Assembly (NCBI GenBank): GCA_050178385.1
Contig: JBFXGD010000050.1
Coordinates: forward strand, 1 to 21,763
DNA: 21,763 bases
Origin: Calditrichaceae bacterium
Lineage (GTDB): Bacteria > Calditrichota > Calditrichia > Calditrichales > JBFXGD01
Direction: 5' to 3'
Shown piece by piece: positions 1,529-12,783 of the stretch; position 1 is the stretch's first letter; every line of letters starts with the position of its first letter. The notes beneath the pieces were generated by a model, which was given only the letters and a program-made list of their open reading frames with translations, did no database searches and was not told the origin of the DNA. A program made the position numbers and the translations under genes.

Positions 1529-4144
1529 ATGATTGGACAGTTGATAGCGCATTATAAAATAGTAGAGAAACTTGGTGAAGGAGGTATGGGTGTTGTTTAT
1601 AAGGCTGAAGATTCAAAACTCAAACGCCAGGTCGCTATAAAATTCCTTCCGCAAATGGTCGCGTCAATCCCCACCGACCGGGACAGATTCAAAATCGAAG
1701 CCCAGGCCGCCGCCGCGTTTAATCATCCAAATTCGGCCACAATCTATGCCATCGAAGAAGTGGACGAGACCATGTTTATCGTCATGGAATATCTTGAAGG
1801 CCAGGATTTAAAGAAAAAAATTCAATCGGGTACGCTTGATACAAAAGAAGTACTTTCCATCGCTATTCAGATAGCCGAAGGCCTCAGCGCCGCCCATGCC
1901 AAAGGAATCATCCACCGGGATATCAAGAGCGCTAATATTATGCTCGCGCCGGATAATAAAAACAATGTAAAAATTATGGATTTTGGTCTAGCGAAAATCG
2001 GCGGCGGGGCGCAGGTCACTCAAATTGGTTCGACTCTCGGAACAGTCGCCTACATGTCTCCCGAGCAGGCCATGGGGGAAGATGTTGACCTTAGAGCGGA
2101 TATTTGGTCGTTTGGTGTTGTGCTATACGAGATGCTTACCGGAGAACTTCCCTTTAAGGGAGAGTACGAATCAGCCGTCATGTACTCAATCATGCATGAA
2201 GAACCTGAACCGCCATCGGGTATCCGACCCGAAATTCCTGAATTTTTTGATCAAATTATTAAGAGCATGCTGACAAAGAACAGGGATGAACGGTACAGGC
2301 ATACTGAAGATTTGCTGGAAGATTTAAGAAAGCTGGAAAAATTTACAAATGACGGACAGGAAATCGAATTATCTGTCCGAAAGGATGTGACAAAACCCCA
2401 CGAGTTATCCACAAAGAAAGTGTTGGTTCCTTTCCTGCGAAAACGAATTTCCCTGATCGCGCTTGGGCTCCTGTTTATCGCGGTGATATTTATATCCGGG
2501 CGTTATTTGCTGCCCGGGGTTTCAATGCTTAGTTCCGTGCCCGAAGTTCTGCACATCGCCGTTATTCCGTTTACCAATATCGGAAACGATCCGTCAAACA
2601 AGGCCCTGAGTGACGGACTCGCGGAGACACTGACAAGCCAGCTCAATCAGCTTGAACAGTTTCAGGGGGCATTATGGGTTATCCCGGCCAGCGAGATGCG
2701 GGCAAATAATATCAGGACTGTGAGTGAAGCGAGACAAAAGTTCGGGGTCAATCTGGCAATCACCGGGAGTGTGCAAAGAAACAGTGAAGGTCTTCGTGTG
2801 ACCATGAATCTGGTGGAATCAAATTCGTTAAGACAACTTGATTCGAAAATGATTGATGACCCGATGAAGAATTCAAGTATCCTGCAGAATGAAGCGGTCA
2901 TAAAACTGGCGGATATGCTGAATATTGATCTTAAGCCGGATGTCCTGGAGAAATTACACGCCGGAAGGACCTCAAATCCCGGAGCTTATGAATTCTATCT
3001 GCAGGGACGTGGGTATATGCAGAACTATACAAAAGTGGAAAATTTAAATCTGGCAATCGAATTATTTGAACGCGCCATAAATGAGGATCCATCCTATGCC
3101 CTGGCTTTTGCCGGTCTGGGTGAGGCGTATCTGCGTAAATTTGAAGAGACGGAAGATGTTCAATGGATTGAAAAAGCCACAAATTATTGCAGCCGCGCGG
3201 TTGAACTTAACGCTCGGGTTGCCCCCATTTATGCGACCCTGGGAACGATCAATCTAAAAAAAGGGAATTATGAAAAGGCGCATTATGAATTTCAGCGCGC
3301 GCTGCAGATTGATCCCTTTAACGCGGATGCGCACAGGGGAAACGCGAATACTTATATGGCTGAAGGGCGTCTAAAGGAAGCTGAAGCCGTTTATAATAAA
3401 TCGATTGAATTAAAACCGGACTATTGGGGCGGATATAATGATCTCGGGGTTTTTTTATATCGTCACGGACGCTATGAGGACGCCATACAGCAATTTAAAC
3501 AGGTGGTGGACCTGACTCCGCAGAACGCCGGAGGATATAGAAATCTGGGCGCGATGTATTTCTATATCGAACGGCAGGATGAAGCCATAAGGATGTTTAA
3601 GAAGGCGCTGGAGATTCAACCGGATTACAGTATTTATTCCAATCTGGCGACCATGTATTTCTATGACGGAAATTTTAACGATGCCGCTCAGATGTATGAG
3701 AAAGCGCTTGGCATGCAGGATACCGATTTTAAGGTTTGGGGATATCTGGGAACCTCATGTCAGTTATCAACTCCCCCAAATCATGAATTGTCTATCAAAG
3801 CCTTTGCCCGCGCTGAGTCGATCGCCCGTGAACATCTCATAATTAATCCAAAAGACGCGGACATATTATCGCGCATGGCGACTTATTTTATCGAAAGCGG
3901 GCAGGTTGACAGTACTCTCGTATATTTAAACAGGACCATTGAATTGAATCCTAAAGAAATTAATATATGGTTCAGGATCGGCACATCGTATGAGCAGATC
4001 GGGAGAAGGGATTTGGCCATAAGATGGATAGAAAAGGCAGTCGGTAACGGGTATTCCATCGATGAAATCAATCGAAATCCGGTGCTGACCGGTTTAAGAA
4101 AAGACACAAGATACGCGGAGCTTGAGAAAAGATATAAAAATTAG
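1529..4144 (+). CDS. Hanks-type Ser/Thr protein kinase 1: kinase - TM - TolB-N/CsgG-like domain - TPR array
   Basis: Kinase motifs are GEGGMGVVY, VAIK, HRDIKSAN, DFG, GTVAYMSPE and DIWSFG. A hydrophobic segment (LIALGLLFIAVIFISG) is followed by IAVIPFTN and multiple TPR units (A...F.RAL.IDP, Y.NLG). Confidence 0.95.
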   Translation: MIGQLIAHYKIVEKLGEGGMGVVYKAEDSKLKRQVAIKFLPQMVASIPTDRDRFKIEAQAAAAFNHPNSATIYAIEEVDETMFIVMEYLEGQDLKKKIQSGTLDTKEVLSIAIQIAEGLSAAHAKGIIHRDIKSANIMLAPDNKNNVKIMDFGLAKIGGGAQVTQIGSTLGTVAYMSPEQAMGEDVDLRADIWSFGVVLYEMLTGELPFKGEYESAVMYSIMHEEPEPPSGIRPEIPEFFDQIIKSMLTKNRDERYRHTEDLLEDLRKLEKFTNDGQEIELSVRKDVTKPHELSTKKVLVPFLRKRISLIALGLLFIAVIFISGRYLLPGVSMLSSVPEVLHIAVIPFTNIGNDPSNKALSDGLAETLTSQLNQLEQFQGALWVIPASEMRANNIRTVSEARQKFGVNLAITGSVQRNSEGLRVTMNLVESNSLRQLDSKMIDDPMKNSSILQNEAVIKLADMLNIDLKPDVLEKLHAGRTSNPGAYEFYLQGRGYMQNYTKVENLNLAIELFERAINEDPSYALAFAGLGEAYLRKFEETEDVQWIEKATNYCSRAVELNARVAPIYATLGTINLKKGNYEKAHYEFQRALQIDPFNADAHRGNANTYMAEGRLKEAEAVYNKSIELKPDYWGGYNDLGVFLYRHGRYEDAIQQFKQVVDLTPQNAGGYRNLGAMYFYIERQDEAIRMFKKALEIQPDYSIYSNLATMYFYDGNFNDAAQMYEKALGMQDTDFKVWGYLGTSCQLSTPPNHELSIKAFARAESIAREHLIINPKDADILSRMATYFIESGQVDSTLVYLNRTIELNPKEINIWFRIGTSYEQIGRRDLAIRWIEKAVGNGYSIDEINRNPVLTGLRKDTRYAELEKRYKN

Positions 4145-4185
4145 TTGTTTAACCAGAATCATCATCTAATCACTCAGGGGGAAGT

Positions 4186-4485
4186 ATGTCAAAGGATGTC
4201 ACCATTACCAATTGCAATCCAAGTCCAATCACAATCGAAATTCCAAAGGGGAATAATATCCGGTTTAAATCGAATGATACTAATTCGTATACGGTAAACG
4301 CCGGAAGCAGTGACTCAATCCTATCATCGGATTTTCCTTTAACCGTTACGAATGACGGGAAATATCACAAGGCAACAATCAAAGATACGGTGCCGAATGG
4401 GACCTACGGATATACAATTACGCGGTCAAACGGAACCGCCTGCACAGGGGTTAAAAGAGAGACACCGGAAATGATCGTGCGTTAG
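4186..4485 (+). CDS. Small beta-rich protein, cupredoxin-like pattern without copper ligands (partner of kinase 1)
   Basis: SD CAGGGGG precedes the ATG. The sequence has the patterns ITIEIPKGNNIRF and GTYGYTI, ends in TPEMIVR, and contains two Cys. The fold call is by pattern only. Confidence 0.7.
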   Translation: MSKDVTITNCNPSPITIEIPKGNNIRFKSNDTNSYTVNAGSSDSILSSDFPLTVTNDGKYHKATIKDTVPNGTYGYTITRSNGTACTGVKRETPEMIVR

Positions 4486-4626
4486 ATCGCGTTGCCTCAG
4501 AAGTGACAGATTTATCATCAAAGCAGGTATAGGGATGAATGAAATCGAATCCTGAATAATCTCACGAACTGTTGTTCCCCCTCTCATGATTACGGCTGTT
4601 AAAATCTTTCATACGGGGCTAATTCT

Positions 4627-7230
4627 ATGATCAGATCAATCTCACATTATCATATCATCGAACAAATCGGTGAAGGCGGAATGGGAGTGGTTTATCTCGC
4701 CGAAGATACGAAGCTTGAGCGGCAGGTAGCCATTAAATTTTTACCGCGACAGGTGGGAATAGATCCTAAGGAAAAAGAACGATTCAAAACTGAAGCTAAA
4801 GCCGCTGCCTCGCTAAACAATCCAAATATTGCAACAATTCATGCCATTGAGGAAGTGGATGATGAAATATTTATCGTTATGGAGTATATCAACGGGCAGG
4901 AACTGAAAGATATCATTCATGACGGGCGGGAGAAATCAATTGATGACATCAAAACACCTCCCATCTCTCCCGAGGATATGATCAGTTACGCGATTCAGGC
5001 CGCCACCGGATTGAATACAGCGCATGAAAAGGGGATCATTCACCGCGATATAAAGAGCAGTAATATTATGCTCACTCGCGATGGAATTATAAAAATTATG
5101 GATTTCGGGCTGGCGAAGATTCGGGGAAATCCACAGCTTACCATTGTTGGATCCACGCTTGGCACGGCGGCTTATATGTCGCCTGAGCAGGCAAAAGGAG
5201 ACGAGGCGGATCAGCGTTCGGATATCTGGTCGTTTGGTGTGGTTTTGTACGAATTGGCAACCGGAGAAGTGCCGTTTAGCGGTTCCTATGAACAAGCCGT
5301 GATGTATTCCATTGTAAATGATGAACCGGTTCCGGTTTTAGAAATCAATCAGGATGTTCCACCCCGGCTGGCAAGGATAATTTCAAAGTGCCTGGAAAAA
5401 GAACCGGGATCCCGTTATCAGAACATGCGGGAAGTCCTGACCGACCTAAAGAATATTAACTCGGATGAGATCCCTGATACTCTGACCCGCGCTAAAGCGG
5501 CTAAAGGGGTTGGGCGGCCGGTTTCATTTAGCCCGAAAACCATAAAAATTTCGGCGATGGTTATCATTATAATTCTCGCGGGAATGATTCTTACGGGCAG
5601 ATTCGGTAAAATCAGCACCAATATTTTATCTTCCGACGTACCGGAGGCCCAGCATTTGCTCGTCCTGCCTTTGACGAATATCGGTGGAGACCCGGGTCAG
5701 GCGGCTCTTTGCGACGGCCTTGCGGAAATACTCACCAGCAACCTGTCCCAGCTTGAGCAGTTTCATGGATCGCTCTGGGTTGTGCCGTTTAGTGAAGTGC
5801 GTCGAAATGGTATCAGCAGTCCGGGGGAGGCGCGGCGGATTTTTGGGGCGAATATTGCCGTGACGGGTAGTCTGCAGCTACTGAAGGATGTTTTTCGTCT
5901 GACTCTTACACTGATTGATGCTTCAACCTTGAGGCAAATCAGCTCTACCGTCATTGATGTCAATGAATCGGATTTGACTCTATTGCAGGACCGGTCTGTA
6001 GGAAAGCTAATGACAATGCTAAATCTCAGACTCAATCCCGAATCACACAAAGTTCTAAGAGAAGGTGGAACGGGTGATCCGCTGGCATATGAATTTTATC
6101 TGCAGGGCCGCGGTTATCTCCAGCGATATGAAGAGTATGAAAATATAGATGCTGCGATCAGTTTATTCAGTCAGGCTTTGAAGCGTGATTCCCTGTACGC
6201 CCAGGCACATGCGGGTCTTGGGGAGGCCTACTGGAGAAAGTTTTATACGTCAAAGGAAGTTGAGTATGCAGATTTGGCTCTTGTTTCTTGTGAAAAGGCT
6301 TTCGCTCTTAATGCCCGTCTGGCGCCGGTAAATACAGCCTTAGGGATGGTTCATGCCGGTACCGGAAAATACGAAGAAGCGGTGGGTGATTTCAGCCGGG
6401 CATTAGAAATAAATCCGACCGATGCGGATGCTTACCGCGGTTTGGCGAATGCCTATGAATCACAGGAGCTTTTCAATGAAGCGGAGGTTACTTTTAAAAA
6501 AGCCATAGAACTGAAACCGGATTATTGGGCAGGCTACAATGATCTTGGAGTATATTATTACCGCCATGGTCGGTTTGAAGAAGCTATTCAGGAATTTCAG
6601 AATGTTATCAGGCTGACACCAGACAACAGTCGCGGGTACAACAATATTGGTGGTATTTATTATATGCAGGAAAAATGGGAAAAGGCCGAAGAAATGTTTG
6701 AGCAGTCTTTTAGGTTGCATAAGTCATATCTCGTAGCGTCAAACTTAGGAACTCTTTACTATATAGAAGGAAAATTTAAGCAAGCCGCGGAGATGTACAG
6801 GACAGCCCTGGAAATGAATGAGAATGATTTTTTAATCTGGGGGAATCTGGCATCCGCGATTTACTGGATTCCCGAAGAGAGAAAAAACGCGCGTAAATAT
6901 TATCAGAAAGCGATTGAACTGGCTGAGAAACAAAGATCGGTTAATCCAAATGATCCGAATGTCGTCTCGCGTCTGGCGGGATACTACGCAATGACGGGGA
7001 ACAGAAGCAAAGCCGAATTAATGATCGAATCGGCCATCAGACTCGCGCCGAATAGCATTAATGTCATGTATGAGGCCGGAACTGTTTACGAGCAATTGGG
7101 TGACAGGAAAAAAGCCATCGACTGGATTGGTATGGCGCTGGAAAACGGGTATTCGAAATCAGAAATCCTAAATCAACCGGAATTGCGTGAGTTGCTGGCT
7201 GATGACAGTTTTAAGCGTTATTTGAAATGA
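4627..7230 (+). CDS. Hanks-type Ser/Thr protein kinase 2 (paralog of kinase 1): kinase - TM - TolB-N-like - TPR array
   Basis: Kinase motifs are GEGGMGVVY, VAIK, HRDIKSSN, DFG and MSPE, followed by TM ISAMVIIIILAGMIL. It shares distinctive blocks with kinase 1 (DGLAE.LTS.L.QLEQF.G.LWV, AYEFYLQGRGY, IELKPDYW.GYNDLG). Confidence 0.95.
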   Translation: MIRSISHYHIIEQIGEGGMGVVYLAEDTKLERQVAIKFLPRQVGIDPKEKERFKTEAKAAASLNNPNIATIHAIEEVDDEIFIVMEYINGQELKDIIHDGREKSIDDIKTPPISPEDMISYAIQAATGLNTAHEKGIIHRDIKSSNIMLTRDGIIKIMDFGLAKIRGNPQLTIVGSTLGTAAYMSPEQAKGDEADQRSDIWSFGVVLYELATGEVPFSGSYEQAVMYSIVNDEPVPVLEINQDVPPRLARIISKCLEKEPGSRYQNMREVLTDLKNINSDEIPDTLTRAKAAKGVGRPVSFSPKTIKISAMVIIIILAGMILTGRFGKISTNILSSDVPEAQHLLVLPLTNIGGDPGQAALCDGLAEILTSNLSQLEQFHGSLWVVPFSEVRRNGISSPGEARRIFGANIAVTGSLQLLKDVFRLTLTLIDASTLRQISSTVIDVNESDLTLLQDRSVGKLMTMLNLRLNPESHKVLREGGTGDPLAYEFYLQGRGYLQRYEEYENIDAAISLFSQALKRDSLYAQAHAGLGEAYWRKFYTSKEVEYADLALVSCEKAFALNARLAPVNTALGMVHAGTGKYEEAVGDFSRALEINPTDADAYRGLANAYESQELFNEAEVTFKKAIELKPDYWAGYNDLGVYYYRHGRFEEAIQEFQNVIRLTPDNSRGYNNIGGIYYMQEKWEKAEEMFEQSFRLHKSYLVASNLGTLYYIEGKFKQAAEMYRTALEMNENDFLIWGNLASAIYWIPEERKNARKYYQKAIELAEKQRSVNPNDPNVVSRLAGYYAMTGNRSKAELMIESAIRLAPNSINVMYEAGTVYEQLGDRKKAIDWIGMALENGYSKSEILNQPELRELLADDSFKRYLK

Positions 7231-7261
7231 AATAAATGATTTATTTAAATCCGAGGGGGAT

Positions 7262-7687
7262 ATGATGAGACCGATTAGAATTTTCTATAGTATTATCGCT
7301 TTGCTGATCATCGCGGTTCTTTTTGCGGTGCTGCCCGAATCTTCATTTATGCTGCATGCTCAGAAACCGGATAAAGAACATCACCTTTCAATAATAAAAA
7401 TGAAGAAGGGATGGAAAGTCGTTGACGCCGCCGATACGACAAAAAGCACCATTGTTGTAGATAAAGGGGATAAAATCATCTGGACCGCATACGGATCGAA
7501 AGTGTATATGCAGTTTTTAGATCAGAAACTCGTTGGAAAATATACACACGTTATTGACAGCGGTGAAGAATTCCGGGTAACGGTGGGGAATCTCGCAAAA
7601 AAAGGACCAAATCCGTACGCTGTTTTTTGTCTGGCGGATCTGGAGTTCGCGACAGGAGATTCACCGCCTAAAATTGTTGTTAATTAA
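7262..7687 (+). CDS. Small secreted/membrane-anchored beta-rich protein, cupredoxin-like pattern (partner of kinase 2)
   Basis: SD GAGGGGG precedes the start. The N-terminus is signal-peptide-like (MMRPIRIFYSIIALLIIAVLFAVL). Other patterns are TIVVDKGDKIIW, GPNPYAVFC and C-terminal SPPKIVVN. Confidence 0.75.
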   Translation: MMRPIRIFYSIIALLIIAVLFAVLPESSFMLHAQKPDKEHHLSIIKMKKGWKVVDAADTTKSTIVVDKGDKIIWTAYGSKVYMQFLDQKLVGKYTHVIDSGEEFRVTVGNLAKKGPNPYAVFCLADLEFATGDSPPKIVVN

Positions 7688-7951
7688 TCTTTGAATGAAA
7701 GGGGAAAAATTCAATTGTTTACTTTGGCTGTTTTACTAATTAGATTCACTGCAGACAGGTTGATCAGGAACCGTCATTAATAAATATTTCTGTTGCTGAT
7801 GATATTTTGTTGATACAACCCTTCAGGCCTGATTACGATCTGCTGCCATTATCAACTCCTTCTGTTTGTTCTGTTAAAAAATAAAATTGACTATATGTTT
7901 TGGGTTCCAAAACACAATTCAGGAACATTAAATTTTTGTCGGGGAGGTCTC

Positions 7952-8296
7952 ATGAAAACCAAAGATAAAATTGATGGTGATGTGGGGATTTTGTGGTTAA
8001 AAGGGAAAATTATGGGTTACCCGGAAACCGATGATCTGCACAATGAAGTTAAAAGTTTACTTGGTGGAGGCGCAAAAAAAATCGTTATTGATCTTCAGGG
8101 AGTAAACTGGATGAACAGTATGGGGGTCGGGGCGCTGATGCGCAGCCTGACGACCGTTCGCAATGCCGGCGGAGAATTGTGTTTGTCCAGGCTGACGGAG
8201 AAGGTGCGCAGCATATTTGTCATGACTCAATTGGTGCGTGTTTTTGAAATTTATGAATCGGTTGACAAAGCCGTAGAACACTACAAATCTTCGTGA
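7952..8296 (+). CDS. STAS-domain anti-sigma factor antagonist (RsbV/SpoIIAA-like)
   Basis: Motifs are L.GKI, KKIVIDLQGVNWMNSMGVGAL (conserved phospho-Ser position) and VRSIFVMTQL...FEIY. The start is reassigned to ATG 7952 behind a strong SD (GGAGGT). Confidence 0.92.
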   Translation: MKTKDKIDGDVGILWLKGKIMGYPETDDLHNEVKSLLGGGAKKIVIDLQGVNWMNSMGVGALMRSLTTVRNAGGELCLSRLTEKVRSIFVMTQLVRVFEIYESVDKAVEHYKSS

Positions 8297-8362
8297 TTGC
8301 CGGAAAAGACGCTTATAAATCATCCGGGGAAGCCGGTTTATGTTTTTATGTCAGGGGGTGGA

Positions 8363-8744
8363 ATGGATCAATCCACCGCACAGCAAAAAATAGCAGATGA
8401 GCGGATGTCCGAATGCTTGATTATATATTACGTCCGGCGACTTCAGTGAAACAAAACCAGGAAATTATCTGCATTCATTAGAAAGCGGATTCCGGAGCCT
8501 GATTATTGGAGATATGTTGTGTTATCTCAGGATCCATCTTGAGCTCTCTATTTGCGCAAAGGGGCTTCTTCTGATGAAGGAGAACGGTTTTCCGGTGTTG
8601 TTTGATGATGAAATAAGCGAAAAATTGGAGGAACTGGATTTTTTGGGCAAAAACATTGGCAAAACGGGGAAACTGGCTCTATCTCCAATAATTCACCGGT
8701 CGAACCATGACCATTGGCAGTTAAGTGTACTTGTTGATAATTAA
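8363..8744 (+). pseudogene. Possible frameshifted small gene (28-aa ORF 8363-8449 overlapping an open +1 frame 8421-8744)
   Basis: SD-like AGGGGGTG precedes ATG 8363. The overlapping frame is open from 8421 (across a TTATATATTA tract) to the stop at 8744. No family was recognised. Confidence 0.25.
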
Positions 8745-9061
8745 TAGAATGATTTAAATGGAAGGATAGGAAAGTCGTCCTCACGAGATTATTATTTTTG
8801 TGTTGCAATACGGGATATTATTTGATATCGTTTTGGCAAAGAAAGTCTTCAGAATAAGGCTGTACATCTTAATATTCTTCTTAAAACTGCTGTTAAAATT
8901 TACACATCTTCTGCATATTAGTATTAAAATTACACTCCCGGTTTGGATTCTGCGAGTAATCATTTTTACATTGGAATATTCGGTTTTTAATTGGTTGAAT
9001 TTCCTGTGACGGCAAATCATAACAGACCCAAAAAGTTTTACTAACATAAAAGAACTCACTA

Positions 9062-11467
9062 ATGTCTGTTCGCGCCGGTGAAATCATTTCCCATTACCGC
9101 ATTCTGAAAAAGATCGGCGGAGGCGGAATGGGAATCGTTTATCAGGCGGAAGATATAAAGCTGGGACGTTTGGTGGCGCTAAAATTTCTCCCGCCGGAAT
9201 TGACAAGAGATGAAGAATCTAAAAAAAGATTTATTCACGAAGCCCTTACTGTATCAAAATTAGACCATACGAACATATGTAGTATATATGAGATAAATGA
9301 AACTGATGATGATCAGCTATATATTTGTATGACCTATTGCGAAGGTAATATTCTTAAAACCCTTCTCGGAAATGGTCATTTTGAAACAGATATGATTTTA
9401 AGAATTACCCGACAATTAGCCAGAGGATTAAACTGCGCGCACCGCGCGCGTATTATTCATCGTGATATAAAACCTTCCAATATCGTGATCAGTCCGGAGG
9501 GCGTGCTAAAAATACTGGATTTTGGCCTGGCAAAATTTTCGGGTCAGACAAAATTAACCAAAACGGGTATGGCGCTGGGAACAGCGTGCTATATGTCACC
9601 GGAACAAGCCAGAGGTGATCCGGTGGATCATCGAACCGATATCTGGTCATTTGGTGTTGTTTTGTATGAAATGTTGACCGGAGAGCTACCCTTTAGGGGA
9701 GATTATGAACAGGCCGTTATTTACTCGATCCTGCATGAAAAACCATCAAAAATGGATCCATCTAATCAAAGAGAAAGAATCCTTCTTGAAAAATTAAGTT
9801 TGCGTTGCCTGGAAAAAGATCCGGATCTGCGTCCGCAATCGATGATGGAAGTTTTGGAGCTGCTCGAGGGTGACTCAGCCGGACTAATGTATATGATAAA
9901 ACGCAGGTTGACTAAAAAGGCTACTTATTTTATCGCCGCGACTGTGATTATTCTGACTGTTCTTTGGGCGGTTTCCGGCAGGCTTTTTCTGACTTCAGCG
10001 CCGGCTGACGATCGATGGCGTGTGGGAGTGCTCCCATTCCGGGCCTTATCAGAAGATTCTGAATCCAGGGGACTCCCTGTGCTTGTTCAGAATCTGATAG
10101 TAAGGGAACTAACCGGCCTGAAAGAGTTGGGTGTTGTTGATCCCTTAAGTCTTAATGAGTTGATCAAAAGTTCGGAGGATGGAACGGCGCCTGTCAGAGA
10201 TGAGGCGCTCTTCCGAAAACTTAGGGAGATCGGGATCAAATATGTTATTGACGGTACCATTACACAATTTGGTAATAAGATGCTGATTCAGTCAAGTGTG
10301 GTTGAATCACAAACCGCCGAAATCCAGTTTTCGTATAACAGGTCATCGGTAGATGAAGATAATATCCTGAGTGAAATTGACAGTGTTGTGGTGAAAATTC
10401 TTGACCATTTACAGTTGAAATACATCTCATCAGATGAGGCTACAGATATTACACCCTGGTTCAGAGCGGCATCGCAAAATATACCGGCCATAAAAGCATT
10501 TATTCAGGCGGGGCAGTACAACTTGCGCATGGATCCGGCCGCGGAAAAATACCTGCGACGCGCCATCGAGCTGGATTCCACATTTTTATCACCCAGAATC
10601 TGGTTGATATCAAAACTGATACATCAGCAAAATCCGGAGGAGGCAAATATACACTATGAAATTCTGCGTAAACTGGAATTGAATGCTAATCCTTTTGAGG
10701 AGGTAATGATTGACTGGGCCGGCGCAATGATGGCAAATGACTACCCCGCGCAGGCGAGATATCTGCATGTCGCTCTGGAGTACTCTCCTGGAAACAATAT
10801 CCTCTTGTTCAGTCTTGCCAGAATATTGTTTATGTTGAATGACTATAGCGGAAGCGTTCAAACACTCGAAGATATTGTCGAGATGGAATGGGAGTATTCG
10901 CCTGCCTATTATTTGCTGGGCGCGAGTTATTTTCAGACCGGTGAGCATGACAAGGCAAAAGATGTATTGGAAAATTCCATCCGCATTAAACCCGTATATC
11001 CAGAGATTTACAGCTTGCTCTCAGTTCTTAGCCTGGAATCAGAAGACTCAGCCAAATCGCAGATCTACGAAGATCTCTATATCAAAAGCATGCAGGAACA
11101 GGGAACCAGGATTACAGATATTCACGCGGATCTGGCGTCTTATTATTTTGACGTGGGAATGTTCAGGATCGCCGCTGGCCACTATGAGAAGGCGTTATTT
11201 CTTGGAGACCCAAAAGCTGAATATCACAGCGGATTAGGGATGTCATTGTATTTTGCCGGTAAGCCGGATGCCGCGAAAGATGAATTTTACAAAACAATAA
11301 GTATTGATTCGGGGTTCAGTGATGCCTATTACATGTTGGGTATCATTTATGAAGAAGGAAATAATCCGGAGCTCGCCATCCAATACTTTAAAAATTGTCT
11401 AATAATTGACTCTTTGAGCCAAAACGCGCTAATTGCAGGAGAGCATCTTAAAAAATTAATGGATTAG
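9062..11467 (+). CDS. Hanks-type Ser/Thr protein kinase 3: kinase - TM - TolB-N-like - TPR array, with a C-terminal region divergent from kinases 1/2
   Basis: Kinase motifs are GGGGMGIVY, VALK, HRDIKPSN, DFG, GTACYMSPE and DIWSFG. TM ATYFIAATVIILTVLWAV is followed by VGVLPF and TPRs (AYYLLGASYFQTG, AYYMLGIIY). Confidence 0.95.
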   Translation: MSVRAGEIISHYRILKKIGGGGMGIVYQAEDIKLGRLVALKFLPPELTRDEESKKRFIHEALTVSKLDHTNICSIYEINETDDDQLYICMTYCEGNILKTLLGNGHFETDMILRITRQLARGLNCAHRARIIHRDIKPSNIVISPEGVLKILDFGLAKFSGQTKLTKTGMALGTACYMSPEQARGDPVDHRTDIWSFGVVLYEMLTGELPFRGDYEQAVIYSILHEKPSKMDPSNQRERILLEKLSLRCLEKDPDLRPQSMMEVLELLEGDSAGLMYMIKRRLTKKATYFIAATVIILTVLWAVSGRLFLTSAPADDRWRVGVLPFRALSEDSESRGLPVLVQNLIVRELTGLKELGVVDPLSLNELIKSSEDGTAPVRDEALFRKLREIGIKYVIDGTITQFGNKMLIQSSVVESQTAEIQFSYNRSSVDEDNILSEIDSVVVKILDHLQLKYISSDEATDITPWFRAASQNIPAIKAFIQAGQYNLRMDPAAEKYLRRAIELDSTFLSPRIWLISKLIHQQNPEEANIHYEILRKLELNANPFEEVMIDWAGAMMANDYPAQARYLHVALEYSPGNNILLFSLARILFMLNDYSGSVQTLEDIVEMEWEYSPAYYLLGASYFQTGEHDKAKDVLENSIRIKPVYPEIYSLLSVLSLESEDSAKSQIYEDLYIKSMQEQGTRITDIHADLASYYFDVGMFRIAAGHYEKALFLGDPKAEYHSGLGMSLYFAGKPDAAKDEFYKTISIDSGFSDAYYMLGIIYEEGNNPELAIQYFKNCLIIDSLSQNALIAGEHLKKLMD

Positions 11468-11499
11468 CCACTATTTATATTAATTTGAAAGGTGATTTT

Positions 11500-11799
11500 A
11501 TGGAATCGTCAGAAAACAAACTGGAAAAAATGTATCATCTGGCGCGAAGTGATCAGGAATTCCTGAATCTGCTTATAAAGAATCCGGATGAAGCGCTTCG
11601 GCACCGCGAACTCGGATTCAGCGCAGATGATATTCCCAAAGTCAAAATTCTGCTTAATGAAAAAAGGCCGACAAGCTTTATGCAGATTTTAAGGAACACA
11701 CGTGATCTTCTGGATCCGAAACCGCCGGGACCCCGTCCTCCGGATCCCTGGGAACCCTGGCCGGACTGGAGAAAAAGTCATAGTCCGGGGAAAATGTAG
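11500..11799 (+). CDS. Putative RiPP/peptide-signal precursor: NHLP-clan/ComX-like helical leader plus Pro/Trp-rich core
   Basis: ATG 11500 follows SD AAAGGTGA. The leader LEKMYHLARSDQEFLNLLIKNPDEAL matches the A..D.EF...L..NP..AL pattern of NHLP-clan leaders. The C-terminus is DPKPPGPRPPDPWEPWPDWRK. Confidence 0.75.
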   Translation: MESSENKLEKMYHLARSDQEFLNLLIKNPDEALRHRELGFSADDIPKVKILLNEKRPTSFMQILRNTRDLLDPKPPGPRPPDPWEPWPDWRKSHSPGKM

Positions 11800-11838
11800 A
11801 ATACCGTTTACTTTTTGGATATCGACGGTGATATTGTA

Positions 11839-12783
11839 ATGATTGACAATACGCAAAATTATAAGGCTGTGAATTCAATCGGGAACCGGCTGAATCAATT
11901 TACCAGGACCTTACCGGAAAATTTAAGGGAGACGATTGATTCATATCTGACAGTGCCCGGGAGTGAAATTTCAGACCTGGATATGTTTCAGATGCCGTTC
12001 TGGATGTTGCTGCCCGATATGTTTTCGATGGTCTGGCCAAAAGCAAAAAAAGATTCAAGGTTTTGTGAAGATATCCTCTGGGCGCAATTATCGGTGTTTT
12101 TACATTTCAGAATTGAAGATGATTTACTAGATGGAGATTCGGACAATGAGTTGTTGATGGATGCCGGTCAGCGGTTTTTGCATGAAGGTAAAATGATGTT
12201 TTTGAATTATTTTGATTCGGCATCCCATTTCCAGGCCATTTATAACAGCCTTCTGAAGGATTCAAGAATTGCACTATCAACAGTTGATAAACTGGAGAAA
12301 AATTTCAATACAGATCCCCACCTACTCAGAGAAAAGTATATAGAACTGGCCGGTTTATTAAATCTCGCCTCGGCCGCTTATTGCAGCAGATATAACCGTA
12401 TGAATGAATATGATGATTTAACTTGTTTCGGCGCAAAAATGACCATGGCCGGACAAATTTGTGATGATCTGAAGGATCTGGAACAGGATTTGAAAAGAAG
12501 CCGCTATAATTACGCGGGGAATATTCTCCTGAACCGGCTAAGAGAAATTGAACCACAGTGTGGCTCTTCACTGGACAGTGTCTGCAGGGCCATGATTCTC
12601 ACATCGGGTGTCGAAGAATTGTTCTCTGAGATTGAAGATGATTTACACTCGGCGGAGAATATTTGCCGCAAACTTGGTTTAAATGAGATGGTGTTGCTGA
12701 TTAATTTTTATCGCGAGCGTACAAGTCTAATCCGATGGCATTTTCATGGAAAAAGAGCGGACTATTTTTTTAACCGGATATGA
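11839..12783 (+). CDS. Class I isoprenoid-synthase-fold protein, candidate ComQ-like peptide (Trp) prenyltransferase
   Basis: Two Asp-rich motifs are present: RIEDDLLDGD (12118-12132) and GQICDDLKD (12463-12477). There is no RRG after the first motif and no KT motif. The start is taken at ATG 11839 behind GGTGA (alternative TTG 11815). Confidence 0.78.
   Translation: MIDNTQNYKAVNSIGNRLNQFTRTLPENLRETIDSYLTVPGSEISDLDMFQMPFWMLLPDMFSMVWPKAKKDSRFCEDILWAQLSVFLHFRIEDDLLDGDSDNELLMDAGQRFLHEGKMMFLNYFDSASHFQAIYNSLLKDSRIALSTVDKLEKNFNTDPHLLREKYIELAGLLNLASAAYCSRYNRMNEYDDLTCFGAKMTMAGQICDDLKDLEQDLKRSRYNYAGNILLNRLREIEPQCGSSLDSVCRAMILTSGVEELFSEIEDDLHSAENICRKLGLNEMVLLINFYRERTSLIRWHFHGKRADYFFNRI

Follow-up and report, generated by a model that had tools for sequence, protein, structure and literature searches.

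A small gene in the middle of a three-gene cassette in the window (the whole 21,763 nt stretch of Calditrichaceae DNA analysed here) most likely specifies, by analogy with known systems, a Trp-prenylated peptide of the PalX/PalQ or ComX/ComQ kind, with an internal acceptor Trp and a polyproline spacer, its partner being a Hanks-type kinase and not a histidine kinase. The cassette carries, in order, a membrane Ser/Thr kinase with a TPR region, the putative precursor and an enzyme with a trans-IDS fold (Table 1). That the precursor is a substrate of the adjacent enzyme and is prenylated on Trp appears likely from sequence and model data, while its further cleavage, release and sensing by the kinase are somewhat more doubtful than not. 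The overall reading, a precursor of a Trp-prenylated ribosomal peptide, is favoured with moderate confidence. Counting against it are a leader that scores under the curated cut-offs, fold matches with Z-scores of at most 5.6 and the lack of a Gly-Gly site.

Table 1. Features of the cassette, in window coordinates.
Feature	Position	Strand	Details and basis
Ser/Thr kinase with a single hydrophobic segment (about aa 287–305) and TPR region; predicted receptor	9062..11467	+	801 aa; PF00069 (E 1.6e-54) and TPR families
Precursor gene (putative)	11500..11799	+	99 aa and stop; translation, dN/dS 0.10, homologues
Helical leader, aa 1–71; NHLP/Os1348-clan-like at about aa 9–54	11500..11712	+	HMM matches, model helices, fold match
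Pro-rich tract D72–W90 with W84, W87 and W90	11713..11769	+	9 Pro; translation, alignments
Short tail of basic character, differing among family members	11770..11799	+	Homologue comparison
trans-IDS-fold enzyme, predicted peptide Trp prenyltransferase	11839..12783	+	About 314 aa, from a start at ATG 11839 or GTG 11836; AF2 model, fold, motifs

The small gene is real and under selection. Its product is 88% identical to that of a same-genus copy (P0003, locus L001, source label Calditrichaceae), with a nucleotide identity of 84% and a dN/dS ratio that, at a dS of 0.73, is similar to the values for the genes on either side, 0.18 for the enzyme and 0.11 for the kinase. Codons 72–90 show four synonymous and no non-synonymous differences from L001 and the other 80 codons 21 and 12, a contrast that is not significant (Fisher p 0.12). 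An SD-like purine-rich sequence, GAAAGGTG, stands immediately 5' of the ATG in the window and in L001 alike. A promoter scan was uninformative (12 found, 10.6 expected). Word-indexed protein searches returned same-genus copies only, and the enzyme family was reached by a full HMMER search. A precursor profile search returned eight proteins, and these, together with the window gene and the small gene from each of L007, L008 and L009, make up the 12 sequences compared; among them, P0163 and the L007 sequence are one residue apart, L008 and L009 are close relatives, and L008 is partial. A Pfam scan of the precursor gave no family at E ≤ 1, and searches of plasmids and viral contigs gave no match. 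The best ESM Atlas match to the precursor (0.85) is a lead only, with Frankia_peptide and NHLP clusters among the rows under the bar.

The N-terminal part of the protein had been described in an earlier note as an NHLP-type leader, and the string given there, A15-RSDQEFLNLLIKNPDEAL followed by GFSADDI, is present in the translation. The window protein itself matched NF038399 (Os1348 NHLP clan; E 0.005, 16.9 bits) and TIGR03793 (E 0.006, 16.5 bits) under their cut-offs of 40 and 50.9. At E ≤ 0.1, nine of the ten members of the family alignment A5 matched NF038399 (best E 6.7e-9) and five of the ten matched TIGR03793. The AF2 model (mean pLDDT 67) shows a helical bundle over residues 4–53 (helices 4–17, 19–27, 29–33 and 45–53) and an extra helix at 60–71, while the Pro tract (72–87) is modelled without secondary structure and the C-terminal half with low confidence. 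The top fold match among 48,161 chains was the RiPP precursor SonA (Z 5.6, RMSD 2.2, 45 residues aligned), with weaker matches to LigA (Z 4.7), Os1348 (4.0) and a proteusin precursor (3.6), in the range of unrelated helical proteins (3.3–4.7). Foldseek also ranked SonA chains first, yet with an E of about 2. A profile search of the PDB returned an Os1348 chain (E 0.052) ranked below HisF and CopM rows, which were set aside as chance helix matches. These individually weak lines of sequence and model evidence agree, and they suggest a leader that is NHLP-clan-like though no formal clan member. NHLP proteusin-type precursors carry a double-glycine cleavage motif before the core. As previously noted, such a site and Cys are both missing here: Gly-Gly, Gly-Ala, Ala-Gly and Cys are absent from the entire protein, and the precursor homologues have no double-Gly at the leader–core boundary either.

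Translation bore out the reading frame and the Pro-rich segment with its nine Pro and three Trp, and also the period-3 spacing, P75, P78, P81, W84, W87 and W90 forming one i,i+3 ladder. The longest Pro run in the window precursor is two. Among 7287 six-frame ORFs (≥60 aa) of its own genome, the pattern PW..W..W or W.PW.PW occurs once, in the window precursor, a count that is a rough guide given that the pattern was chosen post hoc. A run of 7–10 Pro is present in eight of the 12 precursors, with Trp directly after it in seven and one residue later in one. The tail after the Trp in those eight is 10–46 residues long and ranges from acidic (P0166) to poly-Lys (P0165), the longest being that of P0168; in P0164 and P0168 another Trp follows 7–9 residues further on. 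The L006 precursor (nt 1272–1637) combines ten consecutive Pro with a 30-residue tail of almost pure Lys, Arg and Gly. None of the 12 ends in Trp, and the Trp residues of the window precursor are the 16th, 13th and 10th from the C-terminus. Judged from these sequences, what marks the family is a Pro tract and one Trp, with a variable tail behind them. The Trp position of the family corresponds to W84 in alignment A5, the first Trp after the Pro tract, and to W87 in alignment A4. The pattern of a conserved leader, variable core and invariant Pro-Trp that had been anticipated holds in that Pro-Trp is nearly invariant, but it is the Pro-Trp part that is best conserved and the tail after it that varies.

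Two of the precursors, those of L008 (nt 5–304) and L009 (nt 3403–3924), are divergent and longer, lack a Pro run and carry PWPD near the end, a motif that the window precursor also has. This small gene gave an hhalign probability of only 1.6% against the leader profile and was assigned as a precursor because of its position and the PWPD motif. Its C-P-W-P-D-C ending could possibly form a disulfide loop round the Trp.

The triple Trp had been put forward as the distinguishing feature of the precursor, a view that the homologues do not sustain. W-x-x-W is found in two of the 12 precursors (window and P0003), both from one genus, and the first two Trp codons of the window gene end adjacent 9-nt units (nt 11,743–11,760) that agree at eight of nine bases. 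The extra Trp residues of this genus have probably arisen by a short tandem duplication, and in the sequences compared the triple Trp is a local, genus-level elaboration, most relatives having one Trp there. Because W-x-x-W is limited to these two precursors and lies on a near-perfect 9-nt repeat, multi-site prenylation is no family property. The single Trp is probably the ancestral acceptor, and the extra two would be part of a specificity region that follows it.

The model of the downstream enzyme (AF2, pLDDT 94) matched octaprenyl-PP synthase (Z 22.9, RMSD 2.7, 269 residues aligned) and the Trp prenyltransferase Ord1 (Z 19.6). The enzyme is a single domain of about 315 aa spanned by the IDS fold, with no fused cyclase domain. 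Its family comprises 256 cluster representatives at E ≤ 0.001, and alignment A3 was built from 123 near-full-length sequences among the best 150 of these, plus the query. Both DDxxD motifs are present in 122 of the 124 rows, with a median family spacing of 115, and Gln207 in 119; the Gln before the second motif also occurs in ordinary synthases and is non-discriminating. RRG or RRN within 14 residues past the first DDxxD was seen in none of the 124 rows, and RRG was seen in an ordinary synthase of the same genome, the one that shows the first motif among two of the three compared. The genome has three ordinary PF00348 genes at other sites; PF00348 scored 16 bits against the window enzyme, under its cut-off of 27, and no fitting family was found in NCBIfam. 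Few homologues are named, and they come from uncultured bacteria, one of them from the Ignavibacteriales. Motifs and model point to a metal-dependent allylic-diphosphate enzyme, probably one that does not perform chain elongation, since the RRG loop is absent and ordinary synthases are encoded elsewhere in the genome.

Modelling of the precursor with this enzyme, as the earlier note had proposed, gave an ESMFold2 score of 0.60 against 0.01 for the best control, with a contact agreement between runs of at least 41% and a partner pLDDT of at least 64. Of 157 solved pairs 116 attain the mark, and of 215 mismatched pairs 2 do; those that attain it at scores of 0.60 or less are only 18 solved pairs and the two mismatched ones, so the model lends weak support to binding; it gives no interface and is silent on which Trp enters the active site. 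The idea of a RiPP-type precursor is supported by the NHLP-like leader, the conserved Trp after a Pro tract and a neighbouring enzyme with a fold used by Trp prenyltransferases. We propose that the helical leader would bind the adjacent enzyme and that the stiff Pro tract would act as a spacer, presenting the following Trp to the active site. Mg2+ bound by the DDxxD motifs would ionise geranyl or farnesyl diphosphate supplied by the ordinary synthases of the cell. The indole would then be alkylated, probably at C3 with pyrroloindoline closure by analogy with PalQ and ComQ; we infer alkylation of Trp because of the fold, the motifs and the invariant Trp. The leader would be removed by a protease encoded outside the cassette, and the lipopeptide would exit the cytoplasm. 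Given the genetic linkage, the likely sensor would be the membrane Ser/Thr kinase inherited along with the precursor, its TPR region perceiving the lipopeptide and its cytoplasmic kinase domain relaying the signal.

The linkage is consistent. The small gene lies immediately 5' of the enzyme gene in all seven loci with DNA (window, L001, L005, L006, L007, L008 and L009), and an orthologous kinase gene lies upstream in six of them, the contig of L008 ending before it and L009 having one gene in between. The membrane topology of the kinase is predicted from one hydrophobic segment (KD 2.0). The region after this segment in the window kinase shares 82% identity with that of L001, 42–44% with those of L005, L006 and L007, and 28.5% with that of L009. 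Because these values exceed the approximately 22–24% shared with the other kinases of the window and L007, one kinase lineage appears to travel with the cassette; the genome has seven kinase-domain paralogs at E<1e-30. The cassette is patchily distributed. The precursor profile matched three of 86 genomes from the phylum, the same three that gave a strong enzyme match; these sequences were themselves part of the profiles, and related genomes are not independent. A scan of genome contigs with the single enzyme query returned one locus. Gene context covers seven loci against 256 enzyme clusters, P0166–P0169 being without context. The cassette has no protease gene, no transporter gene and no signal peptide.

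The gene between kinase and precursor in L009 (nt 2399–3193) specifies a 264-aa protein resembling DUF5648 and Lectin_C_term, with papain-type motifs seen by eye, and is a candidate local maturation protease; as a general maturation protease it was rejected, with no homologue in the genome of the window at E ≤ 0.01. Weak enzyme-profile matches in two genomes (G040 and G041) represent another cluster type and were excluded from all counts. That cluster (L021, nt 2631–12,267, in G040; also L013 in G041) carries a radical-SAM-like gene, a peptide of 55 aa containing four Cys and a single Trp, ABC transporters, a membrane protease-like gene and a distant IDS-like enzyme (hhalign probability of 77% to A3). 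From its gene content it could possibly make a prenylated, cross-linked RiPP.

Each of the three kinase-TPR genes of the window is followed by a small gene, namely nt 4186–4485 and nt 7262–7687 (both for beta-rich proteins without a confident family) and the precursor. The first two are conserved in another genome, G038. The small genes may specify cognate ligands or partners. At nt 8397–8404, about 8.2 kb of G038 (L022, nt 3639–11,824) is missing from the window, with gene stubs on both sides, and this gap is either a deletion or a misassembly. The missing segment, which had no BLASTn match elsewhere in the assembly, specifies (labels by reading the sequences) a PP2C-type phosphatase, an anti-sigma pair, an ECF sigma and anti-sigma factor, a repeat protein, a 978-aa protein and most of a PrsW-like gene. 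Next to the ECF sigma pair lies a gene (L022, nt 7466–8341, minus strand) for a membrane protein of 291 aa in which a 9-residue repeat recurs many times in tandem.

Other explanations of the cassette were considered. The precursor might be prenylated yet neither cleaved nor exported. It would then stay in the cytoplasm on a lipid anchor, as a partner of the kinase domain or as its substrate, the Pro tract providing a rigid tether and the basic tail aiding membrane binding. The lack of a protease, an exporter and a Gly-Gly site would suit such a role, as would the long or very basic tails of some homologues (P0168 and P0165). The acidic tail of P0166 shows, however, that tails are not always basic, the NHLP-type leader of PalX is cleaved without a Gly-Gly site (PMC10853753), and in the kinase it is the region after the membrane segment that is conserved and particular to the cassette, which points to an outside ligand; we regard this explanation as unlikely. 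It is also improbable that the enzyme prenylates a small molecule or makes a terpenoid and has the small protein as a subunit, accessory or regulatory, whose Pro-Trp tail serves for docking and not as a substrate. Ord1, which acts on free Trp, is among the structural matches of the enzyme, the Pro-Trp part does not vary but is conserved, and the predicted complex suits a subunit equally well. The nearest relatives of the leader, on the other hand, are RiPP precursors, the C-terminal half has a low model confidence with residues 72–87 lacking secondary structure, and trans-IDS-like peptide prenyltransferases require just such an invariant Trp.

Consecutive prolines stall ribosomes, and PPW-type motifs cause such stalling, so the Pro tract could conceivably be an EF-P-dependent element coupling translation of the small gene to that of the downstream enzyme. 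This would leave a folded NHLP-like leader unexplained and has to reckon with a longest Pro run of two in the window precursor; it is highly improbable. The proposal that all three Trp, on one face of a polyproline-II helix, are prenylated, or form a triple-Trp epitope for a TPR groove, and so define the system, draws on a real i,i+3 ladder, on the retention of all three Trp in the same-genus copy and on the second Trp of P0164 and P0168. The scarcity of W-x-x-W among the precursors, the pairing of orthologous enzymes and kinases with single-Trp cores and the resemblance of the repeat to a 9-nt duplication speak against it, and in MppE only one of two nearby Trp is geranylated, in a leader-dependent manner and by an enzyme of another fold (PMC12715784, available part). 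We consider it very unlikely.

A broader version of the preferred reading, of a prenylated, cleaved and sensed peptide, would posit a class of polyproline-Trp prenylated signals in Gram-negatives that the TPR ectodomain of a eukaryote-like receptor Ser/Thr kinase recognises, the tail after the Trp acting as a pherotype code, and in the window genus an acceptor motif triplicated on one helix face that may take more than one prenyl group; this remains tentative and, taken whole, rather doubtful. If the prenylated-peptide reading is correct, the cassette provides a named, genetically encoded ligand candidate for one among the numerous orphan kinase-TM-TPR receptors in these bacteria, and what these receptors sense becomes testable with three genes. 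The uncharacterised family of 256 enzyme clusters may prenylate internal Trp after Pro, a specificity unlike that of PalQ and of use for peptide lipidation. The triple Trp offers a ready-made way to tell single from multiple prenylation and is not the source of the novelty.

The closest parallel is the PalP–PalX–PalQ system of Paenibacillus alvei, which consists of a histidine kinase, an NHLP precursor and an IDS-fold enzyme that prenylates a C-terminal Trp at C3 (PMC10853753). Here too there are three genes, specifying a kinase, an NHLP-type precursor with a conserved Trp and no Gly-Gly, and an IDS-fold enzyme. As in PalQ, both Asp-rich motifs are present, with a Gln three residues before the second and a spacing close to the 111 of PalQ (paper numbering); this likeness is one of motifs, fold and gene order taken from the description in that paper. 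PalQ needs a terminal Trp, prefers Gly before it and is inactive with C-terminal extensions (PMC10853753; PMC13290415, available part). Unlike in PalX, the acceptor Trp here is internal (10–16 residues from the C-terminus) and follows a Pro tract, and unlike PalP the adjacent kinase is a Hanks-type Ser/Thr kinase (PF00069) with TPR, in Gram-negative hosts.

The ComQXPA system of Bacillus likewise has an IDS-derived enzyme, an adjacent precursor with an internal Trp, an adjacent membrane kinase and no dedicated protease. A likeness of the precursor itself to ComX, suggested earlier, was not upheld. ComX is given as 53–58 aa with Trp third or fourth from the C-terminus, against 99 aa and Trp 10–16 residues from the end here, the natto form (73 aa) being an exception, in which even a Trp placed 20th from the end can carry the modification (PMC5331326, available part). 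PF05952 (ComX) had no match at E ≤ 1 in the precursor or the genome, the genome-level scan being insensitive, as control genomes including B. subtilis also failed the cut-off. ComX has no NHLP leader and ComQ no second Asp-rich motif (PMC10853753), whereas both are found here, the leader in NHLP-like form; the cassette, unlike ComQXPA, has no response regulator and no histidine kinase. All characterised trans-IDS-like peptide prenyltransferases covered in the available part of PMC13290415 target Trp, and ComQ and ChrPC take an internal Trp. The P domain of ChrPC, which uses C10–C20 donors, resembles the present enzyme in this, but ChrPC has a fused cyclase and the window enzyme is a single 314-aa domain (same source and part).

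The leader appears to share with the Os1348/NHLP clan (NF038399, TIGR03793) and with the borosin precursor SonA a helical N-terminal bundle and the pattern A..D..F...L...P..AL. It differs from them in falling under the cut-offs, in having no Gly-Gly and no Cys/Ser/Thr-rich core, and in having no YcaO, LanM, rSAM or methyltransferase partner. In the literature searched, which covered main texts and, for ChrPC, a secondary source, no account was found of a Ser/Thr kinase-TPR gene accompanying a polyproline-Trp precursor.
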